Virus record (IMG/VR): IMGVR_UViG_3300014205_000206
Coordinates: 1 to 64,000 of that record
DNA length: 64,000 nucleotides
Strand: one strand, 5' to 3'
Source of the DNA: a virus
Taxonomy: Duplodnaviria > Caudoviricetes
Positions 1,624 to 12,930 of this stretch are shown here, one piece after another. Below the pieces are notes generated by a model. That model worked only from the letters and a program-made list of their open reading frames with translations. It did not search any database and had not been told where the DNA came from. Position 1 is the first letter of the stretch. Each line of letters begins with the position of its first letter. The position numbers and the translations under genes are program-made.

Positions 1624-2207
1624 TGCTTTTTCTTGGAGATATACACGGAGAATACGAGCTCATCCCTAAAAACATGGGGACAGTCGTCCAGGTGGGCGAC
1701 CTTGGGATTGGGTTCGAAACGCCTCCAAAGTTCAACGACGATTTCCGCTTCATTCGCGGAAACCATGACAATCCAGAACTTTGCCGAGAGCATCCTAACT
1801 ACATTGGTGACTGGAAATTGGAAGGCAACGTATTGTATATTTCTGGAGCTTGGTCCATCGATAAAAGGCACAGAACGCCAGATGTCGATTGGTGGGTCGA
1901 CGAGGAACTCAACTTCATGCAGATGAATGGAGTTCTTTCGATTCCAGAAGAGGATGTTCATTTCGTTGTCGCTCACGATTGTCCAGCGTTCTTGTACAGA
2001 CATCTTGGAGTCGAAGGCGTCATCAAACAAAATACTCCGATGTTTTTGAACGAAGTAGTCAAGCGGTTCATGCCCAGAAAGTGGGTTTGCGGCCACCATC
2101 ACCAGTCGGCGCAGTTGAACGGGGTAGGCGGAATCGACTTCACGGTGCTAGGCATCGGAGAAGTGAAAAGGGTGAATTTCGACGACGAAAAGGAGAACGA
2201 ATGCTAG
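1623..2207 (+). CDS. calcineurin-like metallophosphoesterase
   Basis: GDIHG, QVGDLG, RGNHD, VAHD and CGHHH motifs; ATG 1623 overlaps the previous TAA. Confidence 0.9.
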   Translation: MLFLGDIHGEYELIPKNMGTVVQVGDLGIGFETPPKFNDDFRFIRGNHDNPELCREHPNYIGDWKLEGNVLYISGAWSIDKRHRTPDVDWWVDEELNFMQMNGVLSIPEEDVHFVVAHDCPAFLYRHLGVEGVIKQNTPMFLNEVVKRFMPRKWVCGHHHQSAQLNGVGGIDFTVLGIGEVKRVNFDDEKENEC

Positions 2208-3421
2208 TTCTAGGTGAGCACCAACCGAACACGCTGGCACAGATGGACGAGTACGCGAAGAAAGCGAAGCGAGCGGCTCTAATGGCAGATGGCCATTTAG
2301 GTTACATCGCTCCAGTTGGCAGCGTAGCGGCGTTCGATGAAGCCGTCAGCGTTGCAGGCGTCGGATTCGATATCGCGTGCGGGAACTGCGCGATTCGAAC
2401 GGACATCTCAGCGGAAGAGTTCGAAGATGATTGTGCATTAAGTCTGACAGAACTGGCAGACGAGATCCAAAACTCGATCTCATTCGGAATTGGTCGAAAA
2501 AACAGTTCTGACGACGCACCGGTCGATCACCCGCTGTTCGAAGATGACCGGTGGCTGCTCGTTCAGGATATCCATCGCGAAGCGCTTCGACGCAAAGCTC
2601 GCGAGCAGTTGGGTACGGTCGGAAGCGGCAACCACTATGTCGATGTCTTCGCTGGCCATGACGGATGGATCTGGGTAGGCGTTCACTTCGGTTCTCGCGG
2701 CTTTGGTCACGCAGTTGCCTCTGGCTTTTTGGCATTATCTGCTGGAGAGCAATGGGGTGCTCGCGTTTCGGAACACGACGCGCTGTTGAGCCTGCGGACG
2801 GGCATGGGGCGCGACTATTGGAATTTGATGGAGTTGTGTGGTGAGTATGCATACGCTGGTCGCGAGTGGGTAACGCGCAAGGTTGTGAAGTTGATGGGTG
2901 GTCAAGAGACGTACATGGTACACAACCACCACAACTTCGCATGGCGCGAAACTCACTTCGGTGAGAATCTGATCGTCGTTCGCAAGGGCGCGACGCCAGC
3001 ATGGCCGGGTCAGTACGGCTTCGTTGGTGGTTCGATGGGCGACGACGCCGTGATTCTGTGCGGAGCGTTGCCGGAATACGACAAAGAAGGCTACTGGTCT
3101 GAGCAGCAGGAAACGTCACTGTACTCCACCGTACACGGTGCTGGCCGTGTCATGTCGCGCACTCAAGCGGCTGGCAAGCGTAACCGCAAGACGGGAGAGC
3201 AAAAGACCGAAGGAATGGTCAAGCAGTCCGAGATGGACGAGTGGCTCCAGAAGAAGGGCGTCGTTCTCCGTGGCGGCGGTCTGGACGAGTCACCGCAGGC
3301 GTACCGGCGGCTGAGTGATGTGCTCAAGTCGCAGGGCGGCACCGTCAACGTTGTAACTACGCTCAAGCCGCTCATCGTTGTGATGGCGGGAGCGGATGTC
3401 CAAGATCCATATAAGGATTGA
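2201..3421 (+). CDS. rtcB: RtcB family 3'-phosphate/5'-OH RNA ligase
   Basis: GVGFDIACG, LGTVGSGNHY, HFGSRG, HNHHN, VRKGAT, STVHGAGR and DESPQAY motifs; ATG 2201 after an AGGAG RBS. Confidence 0.95.
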   Translation: MLVLGEHQPNTLAQMDEYAKKAKRAALMADGHLGYIAPVGSVAAFDEAVSVAGVGFDIACGNCAIRTDISAEEFEDDCALSLTELADEIQNSISFGIGRKNSSDDAPVDHPLFEDDRWLLVQDIHREALRRKAREQLGTVGSGNHYVDVFAGHDGWIWVGVHFGSRGFGHAVASGFLALSAGEQWGARVSEHDALLSLRTGMGRDYWNLMELCGEYAYAGREWVTRKVVKLMGGQETYMVHNHHNFAWRETHFGENLIVVRKGATPAWPGQYGFVGGSMGDDAVILCGALPEYDKEGYWSEQQETSLYSTVHGAGRVMSRTQAAGKRNRKTGEQKTEGMVKQSEMDEWLQKKGVVLRGGGLDESPQAYRRLSDVLKSQGGTVNVVTTLKPLIVVMAGADVQDPYKD

Positions 3422-3606
3422 TGATGCCACAACTCACCGTCAAGTTCCTTCCGGGAGACAAAATCCGAGTAGGAGACATCACTGGTCATGTCTCGTTGCT
3501 GTACGTTTCGTGGCCAAACAAGTGTAGGTACGAAATAACGTACTGGCACGAAGGGCGCAAAGTCGAAGTGATCTGCGACGAATACGAACTGAAAGGAGAA
3601 GCATGA
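3421..3606 (+). CDS. small hypothetical protein
   Basis: Fills the gap between rtcB and the prs-like gene with overlapping start/stop. Confidence 0.6.
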   Translation: MMPQLTVKFLPGDKIRVGDITGHVSLLYVSWPNKCRYEITYWHEGRKVEVICDEYELKGEA

Positions 3607-4472
3607 ATCCCATCATCGCGCACAAAGGCAAGATCATCGCACGGAACTTTATGACGCAGTACCCGTCCGGTGAACCGGCGTGGAAGCCGGGAATCGAAAT
3701 TCCGGAAGGCAGCGTCATTGGCTTCCAGTGGAACGGAAGTATCAACGACATCGTTGCTTTTTGCTCTTGGATGAGCACCGCAAGTCATACGCCGTTTGGA
3801 TGCACGGCGGTTATCCCGTTCCTGCCATGTTCGCGGCAGGACAAAGACGGGCCGGTTGAAGGCGATCAGTCCAGAGGGGCTGGGTTCATCCTTAACATGC
3901 TTCAGGAGTCGAACGTCGAAAAGGTTGTCTTGCTGGACAACCATTCGACGGCCATCTTGAAGTCTTACGGGAAGTTCATTGAGCACAGATCGCTAGCCAG
4001 CGTGTTGCTGCCTGATATGTTCGATCTTGTAGTCAGCCCTGATGCTGGAAGTCTAATCAGGGCGCACGAAGTAGCTGGATTGTACGGAGTTCCTGTTGTT
4101 TGCGCCTCCAAGACAAGGGAGCAGTCTTCAGGGAAGATAACTTCGTACAACCTGAATGCACTCCCGTCTGATGAACTACTGGAGATATTGGTAGTCGATG
4201 ACATTATTGATGGAGGGTACACGTTCAAGTTGCTCGGTGAGCGGCTAGAATCTATCTTTCCGAATGCTAACTTTACACTGACTTGTACGCATGGTGTGCT
4301 TAGTGGATATCCAAACATACCAGAATGCTTTAACTTGTATGACGAAGTGCTGATGACAAACAGTTGCTCGAACGCATCGCATATGGGTATGCGTTTTGGG
4401 TTTGGCGAAAGAGTAAGAATCATCGAAGTTGTTGAACGAATCACCATCGAAAGGAGCCTAGAGAATGCGTAA
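3603..4472 (+). CDS. prs: ribose-phosphate pyrophosphokinase-like protein (candidate Adps of NARP1)
   Basis: PFLPCSRQDK, LDNHS, VVSPDAG, VVDDIIDGGYT and THG motifs of the PRS fold. Confidence 0.88.
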   Translation: MNPIIAHKGKIIARNFMTQYPSGEPAWKPGIEIPEGSVIGFQWNGSINDIVAFCSWMSTASHTPFGCTAVIPFLPCSRQDKDGPVEGDQSRGAGFILNMLQESNVEKVVLLDNHSTAILKSYGKFIEHRSLASVLLPDMFDLVVSPDAGSLIRAHEVAGLYGVPVVCASKTREQSSGKITSYNLNALPSDELLEILVVDDIIDGGYTFKLLGERLESIFPNANFTLTCTHGVLSGYPNIPECFNLYDEVLMTNSCSNASHMGMRFGFGERVRIIEVVERITIERSLENA

Positions 4473-5934
4473 GAATGCGTTGACACTGATTGATGCTTAC
4501 AAGATCGGGCATGTTTGGCAGTATCCGGAAGGAACCACGAATGTCTACTCCAACTTGACGCCGAGAGGGTCGAGGGTAGCTGGAGCAAACGGGATAATCT
4601 TTTTCGGTCTTCAATACTTCCTCAAGGAGTATCTGACCGACGTTTGGGATGAAACGTTCTTCCATAGGTCGAAGACTAGGGTTGTGGACGAATACAGCAA
4701 GATGATTAAGGATTGCCTTGGCACGGAACCAATCGCGCTGGACCACATCGAAAATCTGCACGACTTGGGTTACCTCCCGCTGCGTTTCTGCGCCTTTCCT
4801 GAAGGTAGCTACGTCCCGTTGCGAGTTCCGGCCCTGACGGTAGAAAACACACACCCGGAGCACGCATGGCTCGTCAACTACATCGAAACGTTGATGAGCA
4901 ACATCCTGTGGAAGCCGTGTACGTCGGCAACCACAGCTCTGCACCTCCGCAGGATCATAGAAGCGGCTGCTTGGAGAACTGGCGGTAGCAAGGAGTTCAT
5001 CCCGTGGCAGGGTCACGACTTCTCGTTCCGAGGGATGTCTGGAACCGAGGACGCCGTGATGTCGGGCGCAGGACACCTGCTGTACTTCACGGGCACCGAC
5101 ACCATTCCGGCTATCGAGTTCCTTCGTGAGTATTACCATGCGACCGGACTCATTGGCGGAAGCGTTGCGGCCACGGAGCACTCGGTCATGTGCGCTGGAG
5201 GAAAGTTCAACGAGATCGGCACCATAAATCGGTTGCTGAGTCTGTACCCGAGCGGTGTGTTGTCGGTAGTCAGCGACACTTGGGATCTTTGGAAGGTGTT
5301 GACGGAGTATCTTCCGATGCTTCGGTCGAGGATTCTTGCTAGAAACGGGAAGCTGGTCATTCGTCCAGACAGCGGCGATCCGGTGAAGATCATCTGCGGT
5401 GATCCTGAAGCTACGGATGACCGAGCGAAGCGTGGTGTCGTGCAATTGCTGTGGGATACGTTCGGTGGAACGACAAAATTGACCGGATACAAGACGCTCG
5501 ATTCCCACATCGGAGCTATCTACGGAGACTCCATCAACAGGGAGCGCATGACGGAGATCCTTGAGCGGTTGCAGGCGAACGGATTCGCGTCGGACAACAT
5601 CGTTTTCGGCGTTGGGTCGTTCACCTACGAATACGTGACTCGAGATACATTCGGCTTCGCCATGAAGGCCACGTACACCGAAAACAAGGACTACGGAACT
5701 ATGTCGCTCTACAAGAGCCCGGTCACGGACGGAGGCGAGAAGTGGTCCGCTCGAGGCAGGTTGGCAGTATTGCTTGGTGACGGCGACCAGCCTGTGCTAG
5801 TTTGCGACGCCACACCGGAACAGGAAGCGGCGTCGCTGCTGACCCCTGTGTGGGAAGACGGTGAATTCATCAGGAGATCGACACTTGCAGAAATTCGAGC
5901 GCTGGCAGAAAAGTCGATTTGGCGGAACGGCTAA
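4465..5934 (+). CDS. nadV: nicotinamide phosphoribosyltransferase-like protein (candidate Namat of NARP1)
   Basis: DAYKIGH, HDFSFRG, ATEHSVM, SVVSDTWD, VIRPDSGDP, IYGDSI and FGVGS motifs. Confidence 0.95.
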   Translation: MRKNALTLIDAYKIGHVWQYPEGTTNVYSNLTPRGSRVAGANGIIFFGLQYFLKEYLTDVWDETFFHRSKTRVVDEYSKMIKDCLGTEPIALDHIENLHDLGYLPLRFCAFPEGSYVPLRVPALTVENTHPEHAWLVNYIETLMSNILWKPCTSATTALHLRRIIEAAAWRTGGSKEFIPWQGHDFSFRGMSGTEDAVMSGAGHLLYFTGTDTIPAIEFLREYYHATGLIGGSVAATEHSVMCAGGKFNEIGTINRLLSLYPSGVLSVVSDTWDLWKVLTEYLPMLRSRILARNGKLVIRPDSGDPVKIICGDPEATDDRAKRGVVQLLWDTFGGTTKLTGYKTLDSHIGAIYGDSINRERMTEILERLQANGFASDNIVFGVGSFTYEYVTRDTFGFAMKATYTENKDYGTMSLYKSPVTDGGEKWSARGRLAVLLGDGDQPVLVCDATPEQEAASLLTPVWEDGEFIRRSTLAEIRALAEKSIWRNG

Positions 5935-7192
5935 GAAGTTCAAGTTCGACTGGCCAAGCATCAGGAGCATCGCCACAAAGGGTGACCGAGAGATCAAGAT
6001 AGCCGCCGTAGCTTCGGCGGCTTTTCTCGGTTTCATCCTGATCTCACCGGCCAGTTGCTACATCGACTGGAAAGACACCCACAGGCGGGTGGACTACACG
6101 CGGTACGACGCCAAACTTCCCGATCCGATGGTTGGATTGGCGTTGTCTTCCTACAACCTTGAAGAGTATCTGAACGATACTTGGAACCGGTATGCAAGGG
6201 ACAAGATATCGGTGAAGTGGGTTGCCGCCGAATTCCACTATTTCATCGAGCGCAACGACTACAACGAACGGAAGCTATCGAACGAAGGCGGATCGGACTG
6301 GACGAGGCCGTACCTTGGAATCTTCGGAAAGTCCATTGATTCGGCAAAAGATAGGCTGTACTCGTTCGCCGGAAGCGTTGCGGCAATCACAAAGTCACGC
6401 AATCACATCGATGCGTCTTGGAGCCATTCCAGCCACGACAACACGCATGTAGAAGTTTACGAATGCGGAACTTCAAAAGCTCCGCAAACTTGTACGCGCA
6501 CCGTTTGTGACTCAACGGACCACAGCTTCAGTCTGAACAAAGCGGCATTGGTTTCATCGCTCGATGAAACGGTAGGCGCTTGGGGGTCGTTTCCTCAAGT
6601 GAAGAAGGAAAACGTAGGGCTTTTCTTCCGGTCGACGAAGAACAGAAAAGAGAAACCCGACGAAATCGACCCATGGCGGCAATCTCCGCTAGTTGACAAT
6701 TACGGTCATTTCCTATCTAATGTAGATTCTAGTCGGGACGGGGCAAAAGAACGCGCTACCGTGCCGATGGTAGCCAGTTTCGACGCTACGTATTCAACGA
6801 GAACGCCGTTTTGCGGACCACCAACTAGCTATCCGAAAGGATGGAAAGAAAAAGAAGCCGTCCTGTTTGTCCTTGACGACACGATTGCGAACTACAGCAA
6901 AGCGCGCTCGGCACTGACGAATTTGATGGCCGTATCGCAATCTTTACGGTCGTCCATCTCCGAAATTGAAAAAGGAAATGGGCACCAAGTTATGCGGGAT
7001 CTTGCTGATTTGGCGTGGGTTATCCACAATCAGAACGCTGGAGACAAGCACTATTCTTACCTCGTTGTGAAAATTCTTTTGTTTGGGGGTTGGATTTTAG
7101 TCGCCGTTGTGCTGTATAGTTTGCTCTCGGTATTTGCAGATCGGTATAGGCACGCTAGCTGGTTGAAGCGGTTCTATTCGAAGTATGACTAG
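5861..7192 (+). CDS. membrane protein with N- and C-terminal hydrophobic segments and a Cys-containing central domain
   Basis: 443-aa ORF; TM-like IAAVASAAFLGFILI and LVVKILLFGGWILVAVVLYSLL; start codon uncertain. Confidence 0.7.
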   Translation: MNSSGDRHLQKFERWQKSRFGGTAKKFKFDWPSIRSIATKGDREIKIAAVASAAFLGFILISPASCYIDWKDTHRRVDYTRYDAKLPDPMVGLALSSYNLEEYLNDTWNRYARDKISVKWVAAEFHYFIERNDYNERKLSNEGGSDWTRPYLGIFGKSIDSAKDRLYSFAGSVAAITKSRNHIDASWSHSSHDNTHVEVYECGTSKAPQTCTRTVCDSTDHSFSLNKAALVSSLDETVGAWGSFPQVKKENVGLFFRSTKNRKEKPDEIDPWRQSPLVDNYGHFLSNVDSSRDGAKERATVPMVASFDATYSTRTPFCGPPTSYPKGWKEKEAVLFVLDDTIANYSKARSALTNLMAVSQSLRSSISEIEKGNGHQVMRDLADLAWVIHNQNAGDKHYSYLVVKILLFGGWILVAVVLYSLLSVFADRYRHASWLKRFYSKYD

Positions 7193-7215
7193 GTTCTTTC
7201 ACAACTGAATGATTT

Positions 7216-7290
7216 ACGGGTGTAGCTCAATGGCAGAGTTCTCGGTTTGGGACCGAGATGTTGGCGGTTCGAGTCCGTCCACCCGTACCA
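7216..7290 (+). tRNA. tRNA-Pro(UGG)
   Basis: Cloverleaf; CTCGG-TTTGGGA-CCGAG; encoded CCA. Confidence 0.92.
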
Positions 7291-7449
7291 ATTTTACATA
7301 GGGCCACCGGAAGTTCCTTTCAATGGGGGCTTGATGACTCCATCTCGAAGATAGCGAGCGGGTTGGCCGGTCAACCGAGTACGTTTATCGCTATCGCCAT
7401 ACGTCGAAGCTTTGCCGAGCTGGCGGAACGAGATCCGCGCAGTGTGTAT

Positions 7450-7524
7450 GTTGGCGGTAGCTCAATGGTAGAGCCCCGGTCTGTGAAGCCGGTTACGCGG
7501 GATCGATACCCGTCCGCCACCCCA
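7450..7524 (+). tRNA. tRNA-His(GUG)
   Basis: G-1:C73; loop CTGTGAA; T-loop ATCGATA; CCA. Confidence 0.88.
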
Positions 7525-7525
7525 T

Positions 7526-7602
7526 GCGCCTATCGTCTAGCGGTCTAGGATGCTGGCTTTTCAAGCCATGCGGCGCCGGTTCGAATCCGGCTAGGTGTAC
7601 CA
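7526..7602 (+). tRNA. tRNA-Glu(UUC)
   Basis: Loop TTTTCAA; GCCGG-TTCGAAT-CCGGC; CCA. Confidence 0.88.
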
Positions 7603-7609
7603 TCGAATT

Positions 7610-7684
7610 GCGCCCATCTTCTAGCGGTTAGGATACTGCCCTCTCAAGGCGGTGACGCGGGTTCGAATCCCGCTAGGTGCTCCA
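7610..7684 (+). tRNA. tRNA-Glu(CUC)
   Basis: Loop CTCTCAA; cloverleaf; CCA. Confidence 0.88.
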
Positions 7685-7692
7685 AATTGCAT

Positions 7693-7794
7693 AGGCGGCT
7701 TCGGGGTGTGATGGATGCGCTAACATCCAGACCGAAGCAACGGATGAGGCCGTGGGGGCCGTTTACCCCGTAGCCGACCTCTCCGAAGCCGCCT
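7693..7794 (+). ncRNA. unassigned structured RNA in the tRNA array
   Basis: 14-bp terminal stem AGGCGGCTTCGGGG/CTCCGAAGCCGCCT enclosing two hairpins. Confidence 0.55.
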
Positions 7795-7803
7795 TTGTGC
7801 TGT

Positions 7804-7946
7804 GCTTTTGGTGTTGTACGAATCGAACGATGAAGGCGAATCTCGTCTAGCGGCAGGACACCGGCCCGTATTGGGAGTGGTCGGAAACGCTGGTTCGAAT
7901 CCAGCCGTTCGTTTAGTAGCCGTTCGATTCGTAAAGCATCAAAAGC
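7804..7946 (+). ncRNA. tRNA-like RNA on an extended stem (YrlA/Y-RNA-like)
   Basis: D, anticodon-like and T arms (GCTGG-TTCGAAT-CCAGC) with no CCA, enclosed by 12-bp and 13-bp helices. Confidence 0.65.
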
Positions 7947-7949
7947 TTT

Positions 7950-8026
7950 GTGGGGATAGCTCAGTCTGGTAGAGCTGCATGTTGAAGCCATGCGAGTCGG
8001 TGGTTCGAATCCATCTTCCCACACCA
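7950..8026 (+). tRNA. tRNA-Phe(GAA)
   Basis: GCATG-TTGAAGC-CATGC; CCA. Confidence 0.88.
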
Positions 8027-8033
8027 AACTTAC

Positions 8034-8109
8034 GCGAAAATAGCTCAACTGGTAGAGCGCCGTCCTTCCAAGTCGGGGGTTGGGGGTTCGACTCCCCTTT
8101 TTCGCTCCA
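8034..8109 (+). tRNA. tRNA-Gly(UCC)
   Basis: Loop CTTCCAA; U73; CCA. Confidence 0.9.
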
Positions 8110-8115
8110 AATTTC

Positions 8116-8189
8116 GAGTCGCAAAGCTAAGGCAGCGGTCCGGCCTCCAAAGCTGTGACGACAAGGTTCAATTCCTTGGCGGCTCGCCA
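8116..8189 (+). tRNA. tRNA-Trp(CCA)
   Basis: Loop CTCCAAA; G73; CCA; divergent D-arm. Confidence 0.8.
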
Positions 8190-8196
8190 TGATTTT

Positions 8197-8270
8197 CGCT
8201 GGTTGGTGTAAAGGTAACACGACAGCCTCATAAGCTGTAGTAGAGGGATCGATACCCTCACCAGCAACCA
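8197..8270 (+). tRNA. tRNA-Met(CAU), initiator-like
   Basis: C1/A72 mismatch; ACAGC-CTCATAA-GCTGT; CCA. Confidence 0.85.
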
Positions 8271-8276
8271 ATCTAT

Positions 8277-8353
8277 TCAGGTATAGCTCAACTGGTCAGA
8301 GCGCGCGGCTGATAACCGTGAGATTGGTGGTTCAAATCCATCTACCTGAACCA
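8277..8353 (+). tRNA. tRNA-Ile(GAU)
   Basis: Loop CTGATAA; CCA. Confidence 0.92.
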
Positions 8354-8359
8354 AACTTC

Positions 8360-8435
8360 GGAAATGTAGCTCAGTCGGTAGAGCTCTCGCCTCTTAAGCG
8401 ATAGGTCGGTGGTTCGAACCCACCCATTTCCACCA
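8360..8435 (+). tRNA. tRNA-Lys(CUU)
   Basis: Loop CTCTTAA; CCA. Confidence 0.92.
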
Positions 8436-8441
8436 AACTTC

Positions 8442-8514
8442 GGGCGATACGCTAAGAGAGCGAGATTCCTTTGCAAGGAATTTGCAGCCGGTTTGATTCC
8501 GGCATCGTCCACCA
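8442..8514 (+). tRNA. tRNA-Ala(UGC), reduced D-arm
   Basis: G3:U70 and A73 (Ala identity); ATTCC-TTTGCAA-GGAAT; T-loop TTTGATT; CCA. Confidence 0.75.
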
Positions 8515-8576
8515 TCATTTCGTCCCGGTTGATGTGAAACCGGAGGGCTCAATCAAGGTTGAGCCGCTTTGCATTC

Positions 8577-8651
8577 GTGGAGTTAACTCAGCGGTAGAGT
8601 GTCTGCCCTACAAGCAGGTCGTCGGCGGTTCGATCCCGTCACTCCACACCA
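8577..8651 (+). tRNA. tRNA-Val(UAC)
   Basis: Loop CCTACAA; CCA. Confidence 0.92.
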
Positions 8652-8656
8652 ACTAT

Positions 8657-8733
8657 GGGTCCGTAGCTCAGTCTGGTAGAGCACTTGCTTGTCAAGCAAG
8701 CCGTCGTGGGTTCAAATCCCATCGGTCCCGCCA
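8657..8733 (+). tRNA. tRNA-Asp(GUC)
   Basis: CTTGC-TTGTCAA-GCAAG; G73; CCA. Confidence 0.92.
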
Positions 8734-8739
8734 AACTTT

Positions 8740-8814
8740 TCAGGTGTAGCTCAATGGCAGAGCTGCGGACTTTTAATCCGCTGGTTGGGGGTTCAAGTCC
8801 CTCCGCCTGAACCA
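8740..8814 (+). tRNA. tRNA-Lys(UUU)
   Basis: GCGGA-CTTTTAA-TCCGC; CCA. Confidence 0.92.
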
Positions 8815-8820
8815 AACTTT

Positions 8821-8895
8821 TCACGGGTAGCTCAATGGTAGAGCGCTCGACTGTTAATCGAGTGGTTGCAGGTTCAATCCCTGCCCTGTGAGCCA
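8821..8895 (+). tRNA. tRNA-Asn(GUU)
   Basis: CTCGA-CTGTTAA-TCGAG; G73; CCA. Confidence 0.92.
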
Positions 8896-8900
8896 AATCT

Positions 8901-9018
8901 GCTAGTCCCGCAATCGAGCTTCATCTGCTAGTCGGTCTTCGGCCAAGGGCGCGTTCCGGAGCGTGTCGCCTCGGCGGGATTGACGCAATAGCAGGTGCAG
9001 CTTGATGGCTGGATTAGC
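8901..9018 (+). ncRNA. unassigned rod-shaped structured RNA
   Basis: Four stacked helices capped by three short hairpins. Confidence 0.55.
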
Positions 9019-9029
9019 GTAAAACTTTT

Positions 9030-9106
9030 GTTCGCCTCGCCTAATGGACATGGCACTTGGCTACGAACCAAGACAAATGTAGGTTCGAATCCTACGGCGA
9101 ACACCA
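9030..9106 (+). tRNA. tRNA-Arg(ACG)
   Basis: CTTGG-CTACGAA-CCAAG; CCA. Confidence 0.92.
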
Positions 9107-9111
9107 AACTT

Positions 9112-9188
9112 GCCGAAATAGCTCAGATGGCCAGAGCGGCTGCCTTGTAAGCAGCGGGTCTTCGGTTCGAATCCGAATTTCGGCCCCA
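9112..9188 (+). tRNA. tRNA-Thr(UGU)
   Basis: GCTGC-CTTGTAA-GCAGC; CCA. Confidence 0.9.
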
Positions 9189-9194
9189 CACTTC

Positions 9195-9271
9195 GTTGAT
9201 GTAGCTCAACCGGACAGAGCGGCGATCTCCTAAGTCGCAGGTTGACGGTTCGATTCCGTCCATCAACTCCA
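9195..9271 (+). tRNA. tRNA-Arg(CCU)
   Basis: GCGAT-CTCCTAA-GTCGC; CCA. Confidence 0.9.
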
Positions 9272-9347
9272 TGGCGCGTAGCTCAGTGGTCAGAGCTTCG
9301 GCCTTATAAGCCGACTGTCGGTGGTTCAATTCCACCCGCGCCGACCA
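9272..9347 (+). tRNA. tRNA-Ile(UAU)
   Basis: TCGGC-CTTATAA-GCCGA; A73; CCA. Confidence 0.88.
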
Positions 9348-9353
9348 CACCTT

Positions 9354-9430
9354 GTCGCTGTAGCTCAACTGGACAGAGCGGCGGGTTTCTACCCCGTCTG
9401 TTGCGGGTTCAAGTCCTGCCAGCGACACCA
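9354..9430 (+). tRNA. tRNA-Arg(UCU)
   Basis: GCGGG-TTTCTAC-CCCGT; CCA. Confidence 0.9.
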
Positions 9431-9446
9431 ACCACAGGAGAACGAA

Positions 9447-9635
9447 ATGAAACTAGTTCACAAGCAGTTCGGAACAAGTTTTCTCAACATCGACCTGTAT
9501 CGAACTCCAAGAAACTGGGGAATCAACTTCACCGTTTTTTGGGACAAAAGGTATGGGTACCATATCTTCATACAAATGGCTTGTTTTGAGTTAGTTTATT
9601 GGTGGGCATGGGAAGACGAGCCGCACGGAAATTAG
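9447..9635 (+). CDS. small hypothetical, aromatic-rich protein (MKLVHKQF...)
   Basis: AGGAG RBS then ATG 9447; lies between the two tRNA blocks. Confidence 0.6.
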   Translation: MKLVHKQFGTSFLNIDLYRTPRNWGINFTVFWDKRYGYHIFIQMACFELVYWWAWEDEPHGN

Positions 9636-9638
9636 CTG

Positions 9639-9667
9639 TTGACAAACCGTGCATCGAAAGGTAGATT
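9639..9667 (+). promoter_or_regulatory. sigma70 promoter for the second tRNA block
   Basis: TTGACA-17 nt-TAGATT. Confidence 0.8.
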
Positions 9668-9673
9668 ACGACT

Positions 9674-9745
9674 GTGAACACGCCGCGCACCAGCCAACTG
9701 AGCCAGTGCTTGCTCTCGTCATCCTATAGGGGTGACTCGCGCTAG
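9674..9745 (+). CDS. putative attenuator leader peptide MNTPRTSQLSQCLLSSSYRGDSR
   Basis: GTG at the predicted TSS (leaderless); 12-codon run limited to Gln/Leu/Ser/Cys/Tyr; overlaps alternative hairpins. Confidence 0.7.
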   Translation: MNTPRTSQLSQCLLSSSYRGDSR

Positions 9746-9769
9746 CTCTAGCATCATCGAGCAACGACG

Positions 9770-9807
9770 AGCCCCTCCGCTAGCGATAGTCGAGGGGCTT
9801 TTGATTT
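9770..9807 (+). terminator. intrinsic terminator of the attenuator (3:4 helix)
   Basis: AGCCCCTC...GAGGGGCT followed by TTTGATTT. Confidence 0.8.
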
Positions 9808-9809
9808 AC

Positions 9810-9897
9810 TGGGGATTGGCAGAGGGGCCAATTGCACTCGACTCTGAATCGAGATCGGGCAACCGATACGAAGGTTCGAATCCTTCATCCCCGGCCA
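9810..9897 (+). tRNA. tRNA-Gln(CUG) with long variable arm
   Basis: CTCGA-CTCTGAA-TCGAG; variable arm ATCGG-GCAA-CCGAT; G73; CCA. Confidence 0.85.
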
Positions 9898-9989
9898 TTT
9901 GATTACTGGTGGCTCCCTTAATGGTCAAGGCCGACCTTGAGCATCAGTAGCGCCAGATACAGGGGGCGAATTGGCGCTGTAGGTTTTGT

Positions 9990-10077
9990 TGGGAGTTGGC
10001 AGAGCGGTCGATTGCGGGGGACTTTGAATCCCCACCGGGCAACCGGCGCGAAGGTTCGAATCCTTCACTCCCGGCCA
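9990..10077 (+). tRNA. tRNA-Gln(UUG) with long variable arm
   Basis: GGGGA-CTTTGAA-TCCCC; variable arm CCGG-GCAA-CCGG; G73; CCA. Confidence 0.85.
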
Positions 10078-10093
10078 TCTATCAGGAGACGCG

Positions 10094-10474
10094 ATGGGAC
10101 ACAATGCTGAATCAAGGAAAAGAGCGGAGGAGAAGCGACGAGCGTTACGGGACGAATGGATCGCGAACTCCGGCGGGTGCCGCGTGTGTGGGACGTACAA
10201 TAAAATCCACCTACACCACAAAGATCCCAATCAAAAAGTCAGTCACAGCATATGGACTTGGGGTAAAGAAAAAAGGGAAGCAGAGATAGCAAAGTGCATA
10301 CCGATGTGCGAAGAACATCATCACGGTCTCCATCGACCGAGAAAAGCGCACGGTACAAGTTGGAGCTATCAACTTGGATGCAGGTGCGAAGAATGCAGAC
10401 GAGCGGTAAATGAAGTTCAGCGTAGATACAGAACGAAGAAATGGGGAACAACTTCCTCTAAACCAAGAAAGTGA
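10094..10474 (+). CDS. HNH endonuclease-like zinc-binding protein
   Basis: CRVC...HLHHKDP...KCIPMCEEHH plus C-terminal HGT...GCRCEEC. Confidence 0.8.
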   Translation: MGHNAESRKRAEEKRRALRDEWIANSGGCRVCGTYNKIHLHHKDPNQKVSHSIWTWGKEKREAEIAKCIPMCEEHHHGLHRPRKAHGTSWSYQLGCRCEECRRAVNEVQRRYRTKKWGTTSSKPRK

Positions 10475-10479
10475 GTTTC

Positions 10480-10565
10480 GACGGATTGGCAGAGAGGCCG
10501 ATTGCATCTGACTGTAGATCAGATCCGTAAAAAGCGCGGTGGTTCGAATCCATCATCCGTCACCA
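10480..10565 (+). tRNA. tRNA-Tyr(GUA)
   Basis: TCTGA-CTGTAGA-TCAGA; long variable loop; CCA. Confidence 0.92.
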
Positions 10566-10587
10566 TAGTTCTTTGACATGACTTAAT

Positions 10588-10662
10588 GTGCGACTGGCCG
10601 AATGGTAAGGCGTCGGATTGCAAACCCGACTTTCGAAGGTTCGATTCCTTCGTCGCACTCCA
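10588..10662 (+). tRNA. tRNA-Cys(GCA)
   Basis: Loop TTGCAAA; U73; CCA. Confidence 0.88.
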
Positions 10663-10667
10663 GATTT

Positions 10668-10756
10668 GGAAGAGTAATTCATGTGGCCATGAACCTAGTC
10701 CTGAAAACTAGTGGTCGTGAAATACCGATGGGGATCGATACCTCACTCTTCCGCCA
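10668..10756 (+). tRNA. tRNA-Ser(UGA)
   Basis: CTAGT-CCTGAAA-ACTAG; long variable arm; G73; CCA. Confidence 0.88.
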
Positions 10757-10761
10757 TATTT

Positions 10762-10839
10762 GCCCGTGTAGCCCAATTGGCAGGAGGCGACTGCCTTAGA
10801 AGCAGTACAGTGCTGGTTCGAATCCAGTCACGGGTACCA
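10762..10839 (+). tRNA. tRNA-Leu(UAG) with short variable loop
   Basis: ACTGC-CTTAGAA-GCAGT; variable region only ACAGT; A73; CCA. Confidence 0.85.
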
Positions 10840-10844
10840 TCTTC

Positions 10845-10921
10845 CCCCTCGTAGCCCAACGGCAGGAGGCGACGCACTCAAAATGCGTACAGTGCTAGTT
10901 CGAATCTAGCCGGGGGGACCA
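10845..10921 (+). tRNA. tRNA-Leu(CAA) with short variable loop
   Basis: ACGCA-CTCAAAA-TGCGT; variable region only ACAGT; A73; CCA. Confidence 0.85.
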
Positions 10922-10928
10922 ACTTTAT

Positions 10929-11019
10929 GGAAGGGCCGACATTCGGTGCGTCAAGCCGGTTGCTAACCGGTGCGGCGGCGAAAGCTGCCGTGAGTGTTCG
11001 AGTCACTCCCCTTCCGCCA
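10929..11019 (+). tRNA. tRNA-Ser(GCU)
   Basis: GCCGG-TTGCTAA-CCGGT; long variable arm; G73; CCA. Confidence 0.88.
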
Positions 11020-11024
11020 TTCAC

Positions 11025-11786
11025 CTACCAACTGACAGACAAGCCGCCGATTGCCGCGCCGTCGCCATCCATCGTGAGCATACCAATGGTACGCGCTTCG
11101 AGCGTGGCATGACTAAGCCTCCACGACTTGTAGGCCAGCCCGAAGCCAAGGCCGGGCGTGGCGTCAGTCTCAGTAGTACCGTCTAGGCTGCGATTGACCA
11201 TGCCGACGTACCCAAGCATGACGAACTTCTCCCACCTAGCTTCATTGGCAAACCAGCCGCCATCCTGCGTGATAGTGATCGGCGGCTTCCACGGATGCCA
11301 TGTCGCCTTCTGCTGAATGCGGCTACCAAACCCATCTACAAAAGCAAGCACATCGACCGATACACCCGACGCTTCGTGAGTGAACGTTGTTTCCGCCATC
11401 GGAATGATTCTAGACATATCCGCTGTGGCTATTTGCAGGTCATCTAGGGCATTTTCTGGCAACGGCGACACCTGAGGCTGGGTTTGCGATGATCGGACGC
11501 CTACGGGCGTCGTATGCTGCTTCATTCTGTACTTCGCAAGCACGGCCAGCTCTTCTTCTTTGGTTAGGTCCGGTCGAGCGAGCGGCAAGCACTCCGTAAC
11601 TGTAGGAGCGGTATTCACAGGAGACGCCGTTGGGACGCCGGTATCCATCTTAGCCGGAACCTCTTTCGGCTTCGACCACTGCTTGCATTGGCCGGCAACC
11701 CAAGACGCGACAAACAGAAACAGAATGAATCCTACCGAGTAGACGGCGATTTTCTTCCAAACCGCGAGCGGTGCAATGTTCATCAT
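11025..11786 (-). CDS. membrane-anchored protein at the end of the lysis module (spanin-like candidate)
   Basis: N-terminal TM helix; C-terminal beta-strand pattern ending in Trp. Confidence 0.55.
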   Translation of the reverse strand: MMNIAPLAVWKKIAVYSVGFILFLFVASWVAGQCKQWSKPKEVPAKMDTGVPTASPVNTAPTVTECLPLARPDLTKEEELAVLAKYRMKQHTTPVGVRSSQTQPQVSPLPENALDDLQIATADMSRIIPMAETTFTHEASGVSVDVLAFVDGFGSRIQQKATWHPWKPPITITQDGGWFANEARWEKFVMLGYVGMVNRSLDGTTETDATPGLGFGLAYKSWRLSHATLEARTIGMLTMDGDGAAIGGLSVSW

Positions 11787-12049
11787 TTCTCCTTCGGCGC
11801 AGCCGGGAGTTTGATCTCCATGCAGGAGATGATCGCTCTGCGAACGATAGTGAACGGCGTGGTGGAGTGCTCGTCGTCCATGGTATGAGCGATCAGGACA
11901 TCACGGCGCGTGAGTTTTACAACGTAACCTACAGAGCGAAGCATAACGGATGGGCTGTCAATCTTGGAGAGCTCATGCCAAGCATGACCGGCGTCCACGC
12001 CATCACGATGGTCTAGCCAGAAAATGACGTACGCTCGTCCGACTCTCAT
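11783..12049 (-). CDS. hypothetical protein
   Basis: Overlapping start/stop with both neighbours. Confidence 0.65.
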   Translation of the reverse strand: MRVGRAYVIFWLDHRDGVDAGHAWHELSKIDSPSVMLRSVGYVVKLTRRDVLIAHTMDDEHSTTPFTIVRRAIISCMEIKLPAAPKEK

Positions 12050-12930
12050 TTGGCTCGCGTTACCTCCACCTCGATTGTCTCACGCATGATCTTGTTAACG
12101 CGGTGCTGGCGCCAAATGAATCGCACCCAGAATGCGCCTTTTGGTTTAGGCGGCATACCTCGCTCAACAGCCCATCCGTTTCCTCCGCTGAACTCATCCT
12201 TGTAACCGGGGATCTTAAGGAACACCATCTCCTCTAGCTTGGTCTGCCCAAGGTGGTCCAATCGCTCGCGCATGATCGGCATTTCCCATGCGTCGTGCGT
12301 GTGGCCTGAGACGACCAGATCCGCACCACCAAGGTAAACGGCTTGACGAGCCGATTGAATAACGTCGCGAGTAACCGGTCCCCCTCCGCCGTATCCATGC
12401 GTGTAGCGCAGCACCTTACGGATGCTGTGACGACCACGCTTGAACTGGAAGCGCACCCACCCGGCATAGCTGCCGACTTCAACGTGCTGCGCTCCGTTCG
12501 CCGTCATGCGCTCACGCAGCCGCTCTGTCAAGTCGGTCTGATGGTGGCGGACGATGCTGGATTCGTGATTTCCGGGGCTCAACAAGACCCAGTTCTTCGC
12601 GTACGGAGCGTAGAACTTCGAGTTGTAGTCCACAAGGCGGTCTAGGTACTTGTTGCCATTCAACTCAGGACGCATCTGATCTTGGTCAGCCCGCTTGTCC
12701 CACTTGCCTTGCATGGCGCAAAACAAGTCACCGAAGTCGAGGATGCCAGCGCCGCGCTCCAGCGCAAGATCAAGATGGCGTTTCTCCATGGCATGATCGC
12801 AGTGTAGGTTGTCGTGGTGAGCGTCCGAACGGAATAGGAATAGTTGCTCCCATCCTTGAGACGTTGGTTCCATCGTCACGGTGACAACGGTCGGCGCCGT
12901 GCGTTCTACGGACAGCTTTGGGACACTCAC
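12046..12930 (-). CDS. calcineurin-like metallophosphoesterase
   Basis: SDAHHD, FGDLF, PGNHE, THG and SGHTH motifs. Confidence 0.88.
   Translation of the reverse strand: MSVPKLSVERTAPTVVTVTMEPTSQGWEQLFLFRSDAHHDNLHCDHAMEKRHLDLALERGAGILDFGDLFCAMQGKWDKRADQDQMRPELNGNKYLDRLVDYNSKFYAPYAKNWVLLSPGNHESSIVRHHQTDLTERLRERMTANGAQHVEVGSYAGWVRFQFKRGRHSIRKVLRYTHGYGGGGPVTRDVIQSARQAVYLGGADLVVSGHTHDAWEMPIMRERLDHLGQTKLEEMVFLKIPGYKDEFSGGNGWAVERGMPPKPKGAFWVRFIWRQHRVNKIMRETIEVEVTRAK

Follow-up and report, generated by a model that had tools for sequence, protein, structure and literature searches.

How is the expression of tRNA genes in a phage genome controlled? Why phages carry tRNA genes has been asked for about 50 years, and to our knowledge almost nothing is known of how these genes are regulated. 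One locus raises the question directly. It lies in IMG/VR record IMGVR_UViG_3300014205_000206, an 84,058-bp phage-like contig (54% G+C) whose first 64 kb are the starting point here (positions 1 to 64,000; “the window”, whose coordinates are used below unless another contig is named). Within a tRNA array at 7216-11019, positions 9639-9808 hold a compact unit with tRNA-Arg(UCU) and a 62-aa open reading frame (ORF) on its 5' side and tRNA-Gln(CUG), which begins at 9810, on its 3' side. A first-pass annotation made from the letters alone had read this unit as a promoter followed by a leader-peptide attenuator that senses the very tRNAs it controls. Its descriptions of the promoter, the ORF, a run of sensor codons and three alternative helices (1:2, 2:3 and 3:4) all proved correct in content and position. 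From the sequence comparisons described here, we consider it probable, with some reservation, that the unit is a ribosome-mediated leader-peptide transcription attenuator gating the last eight tRNA genes of this phage.

Relatives of the unit were found via the neighbouring proteins, the contigs that encode them, and a profile search of leader peptides among 1.84 billion representatives. All are from uncultured sources, and together with the window they gave ten versions of the leader, eight as DNA and two only as called peptides (P0022 and P0025). The DNA versions are those of the window (9674-9742, plus strand; the same variant as in contig L002), L001 (10777-10860, plus), L004 (7581-7682, minus; identical variant in L005), L006 (3122-3190, minus; identical variant in L015), L007 (9559-9675, minus; identical variant in L008), L017 (1041-1109, plus), L023 (2254-2367, plus) and L020 (334-462, plus; also in L021 and L022), the last being the most divergent copy. 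L018 and L019, which were too short, and P0006, which came without DNA, were left out of the comparison. In five metagenomes, gene callers had called the leader ORF as a gene (L004, P0020, P0021, P0022 and P0025).

The unit opens with TTGACA (9639-9644) and TAGATT (9662-9667), 17 nt apart on the plus strand. Scored against the sigma-70 consensus, this pair matches at 10 of 12 positions and is the sole sigma-70-like match in 6500-12500; shuffled sequences gave a mean of 3.2 matches. The -35 hexamer is invariant in seven of the eight DNA variants and missing from L020, and the -10 hexamer reads TAGGAT or TACACT in relatives. Exactly 6 nt past the TAnnnT hexamer, all eight DNA variants carry an ATG or a GTG, while the intervening 6 nt vary. 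The start codon is ATG in seven of them and GTG in the window, where it falls on the predicted transcription start (9674), so that the ORF would be leaderless. No Shine-Dalgarno sequence precedes the start, and the AGGA in the TAGGAT variants could be a weak one. The window ORF (9674-9745, plus strand) has 23 codons followed by TAG (9743-9745). Its counterparts differ in length, with 23, 23, 23, 28, 34, 38, 39 and 43 codons in the eight DNA variants and 35 and 51 residues in the two peptide-only versions, P0025 being the longest; yet all ten share the TAG and stay in frame with it, and stops interrupt the other frames of the DNA variants.

These ORFs show the evolutionary signs of coding selection. 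When L020 was compared with other copies, nucleotide differences at codon positions one, two and three numbered 7, 5 and 17 against L023, 9, 5 and 19 against L007, and 4, 4 and 13 against L001. The pair of L023 and L020 differs by 13 synonymous and 7 amino-acid-changing codons. Measured against the otherwise invariant core of the leader, L020 has exactly three changes, each a synonymous third-position substitution. That the start codon, the frame and the synonymous-site pattern are conserved indicates selection on translation, and the leader is probably translated. The proposal in the first-pass annotation that the leader is read by ribosomes thus finds support in a frame and stop kept in ten variants and a start position kept in eight DNA copies.

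What would a ribosome read there? Codons 7-18 of the window ORF (9692-9727, plus strand) encode only Ser, Gln, Leu, Cys and Tyr, and an equivalent run of 11-12 codons is present in all ten variants, each ending in LLSSSY. This 12-codon run is the longest of its five-amino-acid kind in the six frames of the 84,058-bp genome, the next longest having 9 codons. It also lies within roughly 130 nt preceding tRNAs for exactly its five amino acids. Such a match could have arisen by chance over an ordinary promoter and terminator, and indeed the hypothesis was formed post hoc and Ser and Leu have six codons each. However, the expected number of such runs is about 0.03 per genome, and a run of 12 arose in just 1 of 100 first-order Markov genomes; the longest run lies exactly at the leader, and it is kept in ten variants, including those in which its codons have been re-ordered. 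We consider a chance match very improbable.

The re-ordering is itself informative. The first five core codons occur in three orders, each a permutation of the same five codons: CAA CTG AGC CAG TGC, CTG CAA AGC CAG TGC, and CAG CAA TGC CTG AGC. Random substitution kept the same codon set at a frequency of about 5e-5 after four changes and 1e-5 after six, and kept only the amino-acid set at 0.024 after four changes and 0.007 after six. To judge from these variants, the core is defined by its codons and not by their order or by a fixed sequence. RNA structure as the sole cause of the re-ordering was considered and rejected: the consensus fold has no helix in the re-ordered block. A further helix that overlaps the sensor codons (H0, below) covers AGC CAG TGC in six of eight sequences and is broken in L007 and L023; since these two keep the codon set despite the broken helix, H0 was rejected as the sole cause too. 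We also discarded a minus-strand tRNA pseudogene underlying the run, suggested by a D-arm-like stretch in the reverse complement, as there was no Rfam tRNA match at that place.

Downstream of the leader, the eight tRNA genes of the window all lie on the plus strand. ARAGORN called seven: tRNA-Gln(CUG) (9810-9897), tRNA-Gln(UUG) (9990-10077), tRNA-Tyr(GUA) (10480-10565), tRNA-Cys(GCA) (10588-10662), tRNA-Leu(UAG) (10762-10839), tRNA-Leu(CAA) (10845-10921) and, last in the block, tRNA-Ser(GCU) (10928-11019). The eighth, a tRNA-Ser(UGA)-like gene at about 10668-10757, was missed by both ARAGORN and Rfam and was recovered by homology to L001:11324-11410, which ARAGORN calls as tRNA-Ser(UGA); its anticodon stem shows compensatory changes across relatives. 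Wherever the contig of a relative extends far enough to show them, the tRNAs behind the leader are for Gln, Tyr, Cys, Ser and Leu alone, in agreement with the correspondence between leader codons and tRNAs that the annotation had proposed. The Leu complement varies, L020 having CAG, GAG, CAA and UAA in place of the window's UAG and CAA. Under standard wobble rules, which we take to apply, the five re-ordered codons together with TTG, TCA/TCG and TAY supply one readable codon for each anticodon of the window (8/8).

We next consider the RNA. The minimum-energy fold of the leader contains a helix P1 (TTGCTC at 9710-9715 with GAGCAA at 9759-9764), the 1:2 hairpin (9718-9736), a mini-hairpin P3 (GCTA/TAGC, 9741-9752) that contains the TAG stop, and a hairpin at 9765-9803 followed by TTTTGATTT. 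Strand 1 (GTCATCCT, 9718-9725) pairs with the purine-rich strand 2 (9728-9739), which can instead pair with the 5' arm of the last hairpin. That hairpin, with strand 3 at 9768-9777 and strand 4 at 9792-9800, runs into a U-tract (TTTTGATTTA, 9799-9808) that ends just 5' of the tRNA; the hairpin itself ends 6 nt 5' of tRNA-Gln. Alone it has a predicted energy of -21.6 kcal/mol, and as a predicted terminator it is invariant, with a 9-bp GC-rich stem and then TTTT(T)GATTT. A simple terminator scan missed it because of its long inner loop and four-T run. H0 pairs 9700-9709, within the sensor codons, with 9739-9748, which spans the stop codon.

All three pairings proposed by the annotation, that is, the terminator and both of its alternatives, are possible in each of the eight DNA copies, with predicted energies (in kcal/mol) between -5 and -10 for helix 1:2, between -17 and -25 for 2:3 and of about -22 for 3:4, ratios that resemble those of the trp leader. 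In the eight-sequence alignment, 94.5% of cells were paired in the terminated fold (P1, 1:2, P3 and terminator), compared with 38-52% in slid-alignment controls; the figures for the terminator and H0 were 98% and 92%. Two-sided changes occur at three pairs, one each in P1, 1:2 and the inner stem of the terminator. Changes seen in the alignment include a C-G to G-C flip in the L020 terminator, one covarying pair in H0 (G-C to A-U), a compensated TTG to CTG change in P1 of L023, and a changed strand 1 in L020 that pairs perfectly with strand 2 over 7 bp. Strand 2 is the most variable part of the structure, with three different heptamers that all keep both pairings. Ranked among random heptamers, each of the three is in the top 0.6-4% for the 2:3 pairing and in the top 0.7-5% for 1:2; both pairings are satisfied by only 1.7% of random heptamers.

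Positions 9739-9791 of the window contain four CTAG sites and two GCTAGC-type palindromes in about 50 nt, and pairing of CGCTAGC (9740-9746) with GCTAGCG of the terminator loop (9779-9785) would form a further alternative helix.

A conditional terminator need not be worked by a ribosome. It could be switched by a phage or host RNA-binding protein, by a small molecule or by direct binding of a tRNA, with the ORF secondary, and the very high nucleotide conservation (loops included), the richness of the region in GCTAGC and CTAG palindromes and the several helices it can form are what such a switch might show. However, no Rfam family, T-box and riboswitch families included, matched 9639-9808 at E up to 1, nor was there a T-box in 6500-12500 at the same threshold; the Thr, His, Leu, Trp and Phe leader families likewise gave no match in 9639-9808. 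Moreover, the pattern of start-codon, frame and synonymous-site conservation shows selection on translation, and the core is set by codons and not by a fixed sequence. We therefore regard a switch of this kind as quite unlikely.

If the unit is a ribosome-mediated attenuator, RNA polymerase would start on the opening base of the leader ORF, on whose leaderless start codon a ribosome would load. Were the core read fast, the ribosome would reach the stop codon and cover strand 2, the 3:4 hairpin with its U-tract would form, and transcription would end 6 nt before tRNA-Gln. Were decoding of the core slow, the stalled ribosome would instead sit over strand 1 and over the 5' sides of both H0 and P1; a ribosome positioned on the sensor codons would melt H0 as well. 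Strand 2 would then be free to pair with the terminator 5' arm, and polymerase would continue into the tRNA genes. The tRNAs produced would decode the codons that had caused the stall, giving negative feedback on decoding capacity; because they decode the same codons that stalled the ribosome, the loop would close. Since the U-tract ends right before tRNA-Gln, there is no room for another promoter, and all expression of the eight tRNAs must therefore pass the hairpin. Transcripts entering from upstream would hold the ORF without a 5'-terminal start and would probably terminate, which would insulate the block. Termination, the coupling of ribosome to polymerase and the direction of the response are what we infer here.

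The direction of the response was modelled by masking a ribosome footprint at each codon and folding the transcript as it stands before strand 4 has been synthesized. In five variants (L006, L017, L001, L007 and L023), strand 2 was predicted to hold the terminator 5' arm with the A site on the core up to TCA, and to release it once the ribosome had reached TCC/TAY and from there onward to the stop. At the stop codon the modelled ribosome covers strand 2. In this model the polarity is the classical one, with fast decoding leading to termination and a stall on the core to read-through. The annotation had cautioned that stalling at the last codons of the run might cover strand 2 rather than free it, and the model agrees: a stall at TCC/TAY covers strand 2, and Tyr is thus probably not sensed in the inducing direction.

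How has the unit been inherited? The leader always lies directly 5' of tRNA-Gln(CUG), while its upstream neighbour differs, being a small fast-evolving ORF in the window, L001, L004, L007 and L017, tRNA-Arg(UCU) in L006 and L015, and tRNA-Ile(UAU) in L020. The 3' 118 nt of the leader have a mean column identity of 90% over eight sequences, whereas the adjacent 62-aa ORF (9447-9635, with an AGGAGA ribosome-binding site) shows just 30-36% protein identity. This comparison indicates that the leader unit travels with the tRNA block. The unit is placed before the last eight tRNAs only, with none before the other 19: the array gaps at 7291-7450, 7685-7949, 8110-8196, 8515-8576, 8896-9029 and 9898-9989 contain no comparable promoter-ORF-terminator unit.

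The variable N-terminal halves of the leader peptides consist of a few short modules (among them DRQRGR, TDEGLGV, GKGI and DVIVT) that recur in varied combinations and are kept via synonymous changes (L007, L020, L023, L004, P0022 and P0025). Such shuffling suggests recombination and possibly a function of the peptide itself.

Several observations weigh against attenuation as we propose it. In the masking model, the antiterminator was predicted for the window only at TTG, CTC and TCG, and L004 and L020 departed from the simple pattern. The 2:3 pairing was predicted even without a ribosome in L006, L001, L007 and L023, and the single Tyr codon sits where a stall would favour termination. Among the core codons, CTC and TCC presumably have no standard reader among the window's own tRNAs by the wobble rules, and L017 and L023 have CTG where others have TTG, in contigs that stop before the Leu genes. 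Covariation in the fold is modest, being equalled in 27 of 500 shuffles. The window copy begins with a leaderless GTG, a start that is poorly used in E. coli-like hosts and would be weak here if the host were of that kind; and genome-wide we found no convincing other leaderless gene behind TTGAC(A/G)...TAnnnT promoters. Lastly, the near-invariance of the loop nucleotides and a conservation of the N-terminal peptide modules that exceeds the needs of the model both hint at an additional function.

Some of these points would suit a different output. A leader that senses codons could act on the processing or stability of the tRNA precursor, or could have the reverse polarity, with stalling lowering tRNA output. 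The uneven masking predictions among variants, the four variants in which the antiterminator is the default fold, and a hairpin lying just 6 nt away from the RNase P site at the tRNA 5' end all favour this possibility. By contrast, the 9-bp GC-rich stem, with TTTT or TTTTT after it, is invariant and has the textbook form of an intrinsic terminator, and the placement of the stop codon lets a terminating ribosome cover strand 2, as in classical polarity. We assign an output of this other kind a low probability.

Other points would suit an action in trans. The unit, promoter and terminator included, might be a small gene in its own right or a dual-function small RNA, its peptide or its RNA of about 130 nt acting elsewhere, and the downstream tRNAs might be expressed only through constitutive leakage of the terminator. 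The N-terminal modules, kept at the amino-acid level through synonymous changes, and the near-invariant loops are in keeping with this, and there is precedent in rnTrpL and peTrpL, examples of attenuator-derived RNAs and leader peptides with an action in trans (PMC6614838, PMC7298713). This explanation nevertheless leaves unaccounted for the five-amino-acid core that matches the adjacent tRNAs, the changed codon order with a constant codon set, the constant abutment on tRNA-Gln despite a changing upstream neighbour, and the two kept pairings of strand 2. As the sole role of the unit we consider it unlikely. Because the loops and N-terminal modules are conserved beyond the needs of the attenuation model, either of the two products, RNA or peptide, may have a trans role as well, and this could coexist with attenuation.

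The proposed attenuator has close counterparts among known systems. The multivalent leaders of enterobacterial amino-acid operons, thrL (Thr/Ile), ilvGMEDA (Ile/Val/Leu) and ilvBN (Val/Leu), and the trp and his prototypes have the same promoter-proximal short ORF rich in regulatory codons, the same overlapping 1:2, 2:3 and 3:4 helices with an intrinsic terminator just before the regulated genes, and the same placement of the stop codon, such that a terminating ribosome covers strand 2; in the multivalent thr and ilv leaders, several amino acids are sensed by one leader, as is proposed here. The present unit differs from all of these in that tRNAs and not biosynthetic enzymes would be regulated, that the ORF is leaderless, that it is found in a phage, and that it has no sequence similarity to the Rfam leader families. 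With tRNAs as the regulated genes, the product would act directly on the codons of the sensor. The pheST attenuator of E. coli, which controls an aminoacyl-tRNA synthetase and senses one amino acid, is alike in applying leader-peptide attenuation to the translation machinery and not to amino-acid synthesis, whereas here the tRNAs themselves would be controlled and five amino acids, or eight anticodons, sampled.

Leaderless sensory ORFs are also documented. In mycobacteria, polycysteine leaderless small ORFs with AUG and GUG starts have been described (bioRxiv 10.1101/834739), and the Corynebacterium trp, leu, ilv and aroF leaders are leaderless short-ORF attenuators (PMC3890552). These actinobacterial leaders share with the phage unit, as proposed, a sensory ORF that starts at the transcription start with AUG or GUG, and a stall in a codon tract that remodels downstream RNA structure. 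The mycobacterial ORFs act on translation of the next gene by unmasking a ribosome-binding site, whereas here the output would be a terminator before non-coding genes. T-box riboswitches are a functional analogue, being conditional terminators that read the state of specific tRNAs; they bind uncharged tRNA via a specifier codon without translation, whereas the phage unit has no T-box match and its ORF shows coding constraint. We found no description of attenuators on tRNA operons in the full-text literature, the coverage of which was incomplete. The novelty of the proposal lies in its target and in the closed loop, as the genes under control would be tRNAs whose products decode the sensor.

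The gated block has several features of its own. The two tRNA-Gln genes, each of 88 nt, have the long variable arm of a class-II-like tRNA, a build that is kept in every relative found (seen in the window, L001, L004, L006, L007, L020 and L023); a long variable arm is normal for Leu, Ser and Tyr tRNAs but not for Gln. The window tRNA-Ser(UGA) gene has C33 where its relatives have the universal U33. In L020, four Leu tRNAs (1207-1563) stand behind the same leader and an antisense tRNA-Met follows the block. Between tRNA-Gln(UUG) and tRNA-Tyr lies a 126-aa Cys/His-rich ORF with a strong ribosome-binding site (window 10094-10474; L006 2435-2818), whose sole Pfam match is a weak zinc-ribbon. The window and L006 lineages have this ORF, whereas L001, L004 and L007 lack it. 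The 92-nt spacer between the two Gln genes (9898-9989) opens with a sequence that nearly repeats the 3' end of the leader (TTTGATTACTGG) and also has a GCGCCA/TGGCGC hairpin followed by a T-run, while the corresponding spacer in relatives is 6-9 nt; it looks like the remnant of a duplication.

With regard to the wider genome, the genes for capsid, portal, terminase and tail tube are on the minus strand of the window, and a plus-strand block holds RtcB, a PRS-like gene, NAMPT and the tRNA array. Next to the array or inside it, across relatives, lie RtcB, one or two genes for RNA ligases of PF09414, the pair of NAMPT and PRS-like genes and, in L001, an EcoRI-like methylase; this neighbourhood of RtcB, RNA-ligase, NAMPT and PRS-like genes occupies 1889-5934 in the window, 2021-3283, 6762-7280 and 8823-9377 in L001, and 8986-9540 in L004. 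These genes look like a toolkit for tRNA repair and NAD salvage. Elsewhere in the window, TTGACA-17-TAnnnT promoter-like sites cluster at 49.7-52.3 kb (49738, 51444 and 52295, plus strand). They may be early promoters, and none of the three has a leaderless ORF behind it.

Searches of other collections added few relatives. Among the cultured phages in INPHARED, matches were confined to generic tRNA and NAMPT hits, with none related to the leader region, and protein-based and DNA-pattern scans of IMG/VR gave no related contig. A pattern scan of JGI metagenomes gave one true match (L015) and two chance matches (L014 and L016). GTDB genomes had no match and hence no pointer to the host, and Pfam searches with ten phage proteins gave no host clue. 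Five contigs encoding more distant relatives of a neighbouring 253-aa protein (L009-L013) had no tRNA array adjoining that protein and were uninformative.

What would such an attenuator be for? One tentative possibility, which we hold to be doubtful, is that the leader is the phage's gauge of decoding capacity for the eight anticodons, used as a counter-defence. Host anticodon nucleases or other tRNA-depleting immunity would remove Gln, Tyr, Cys, Ser or Leu tRNAs, ribosomes would stall on the leader, and the replacement tRNAs of the phage would be switched on. The unit would then work alongside the RtcB and RNA-ligase repair genes that adjoin the array, and some of the replacement tRNAs would be those that are oddly built (the class-II-like tRNA-Gln and the tRNA-Ser with C33). 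Simple feedback on decoding capacity fits equally well as a trigger by host tRNA cleavage.

The case for regulation of these tRNAs stands on ten natural variants of one element and not on a single sequence. If it is correct, the unit would provide a direct, self-correcting feedback on decoding capacity, in which the codons of the sensor are read by the tRNAs under its control. It would make two ideas testable, one that phage tRNAs answer a shortage of tRNA and the other that this shortage may stem from host defence, and it would give those who annotate phage genomes an easy mark by which to find regulated tRNA operons.

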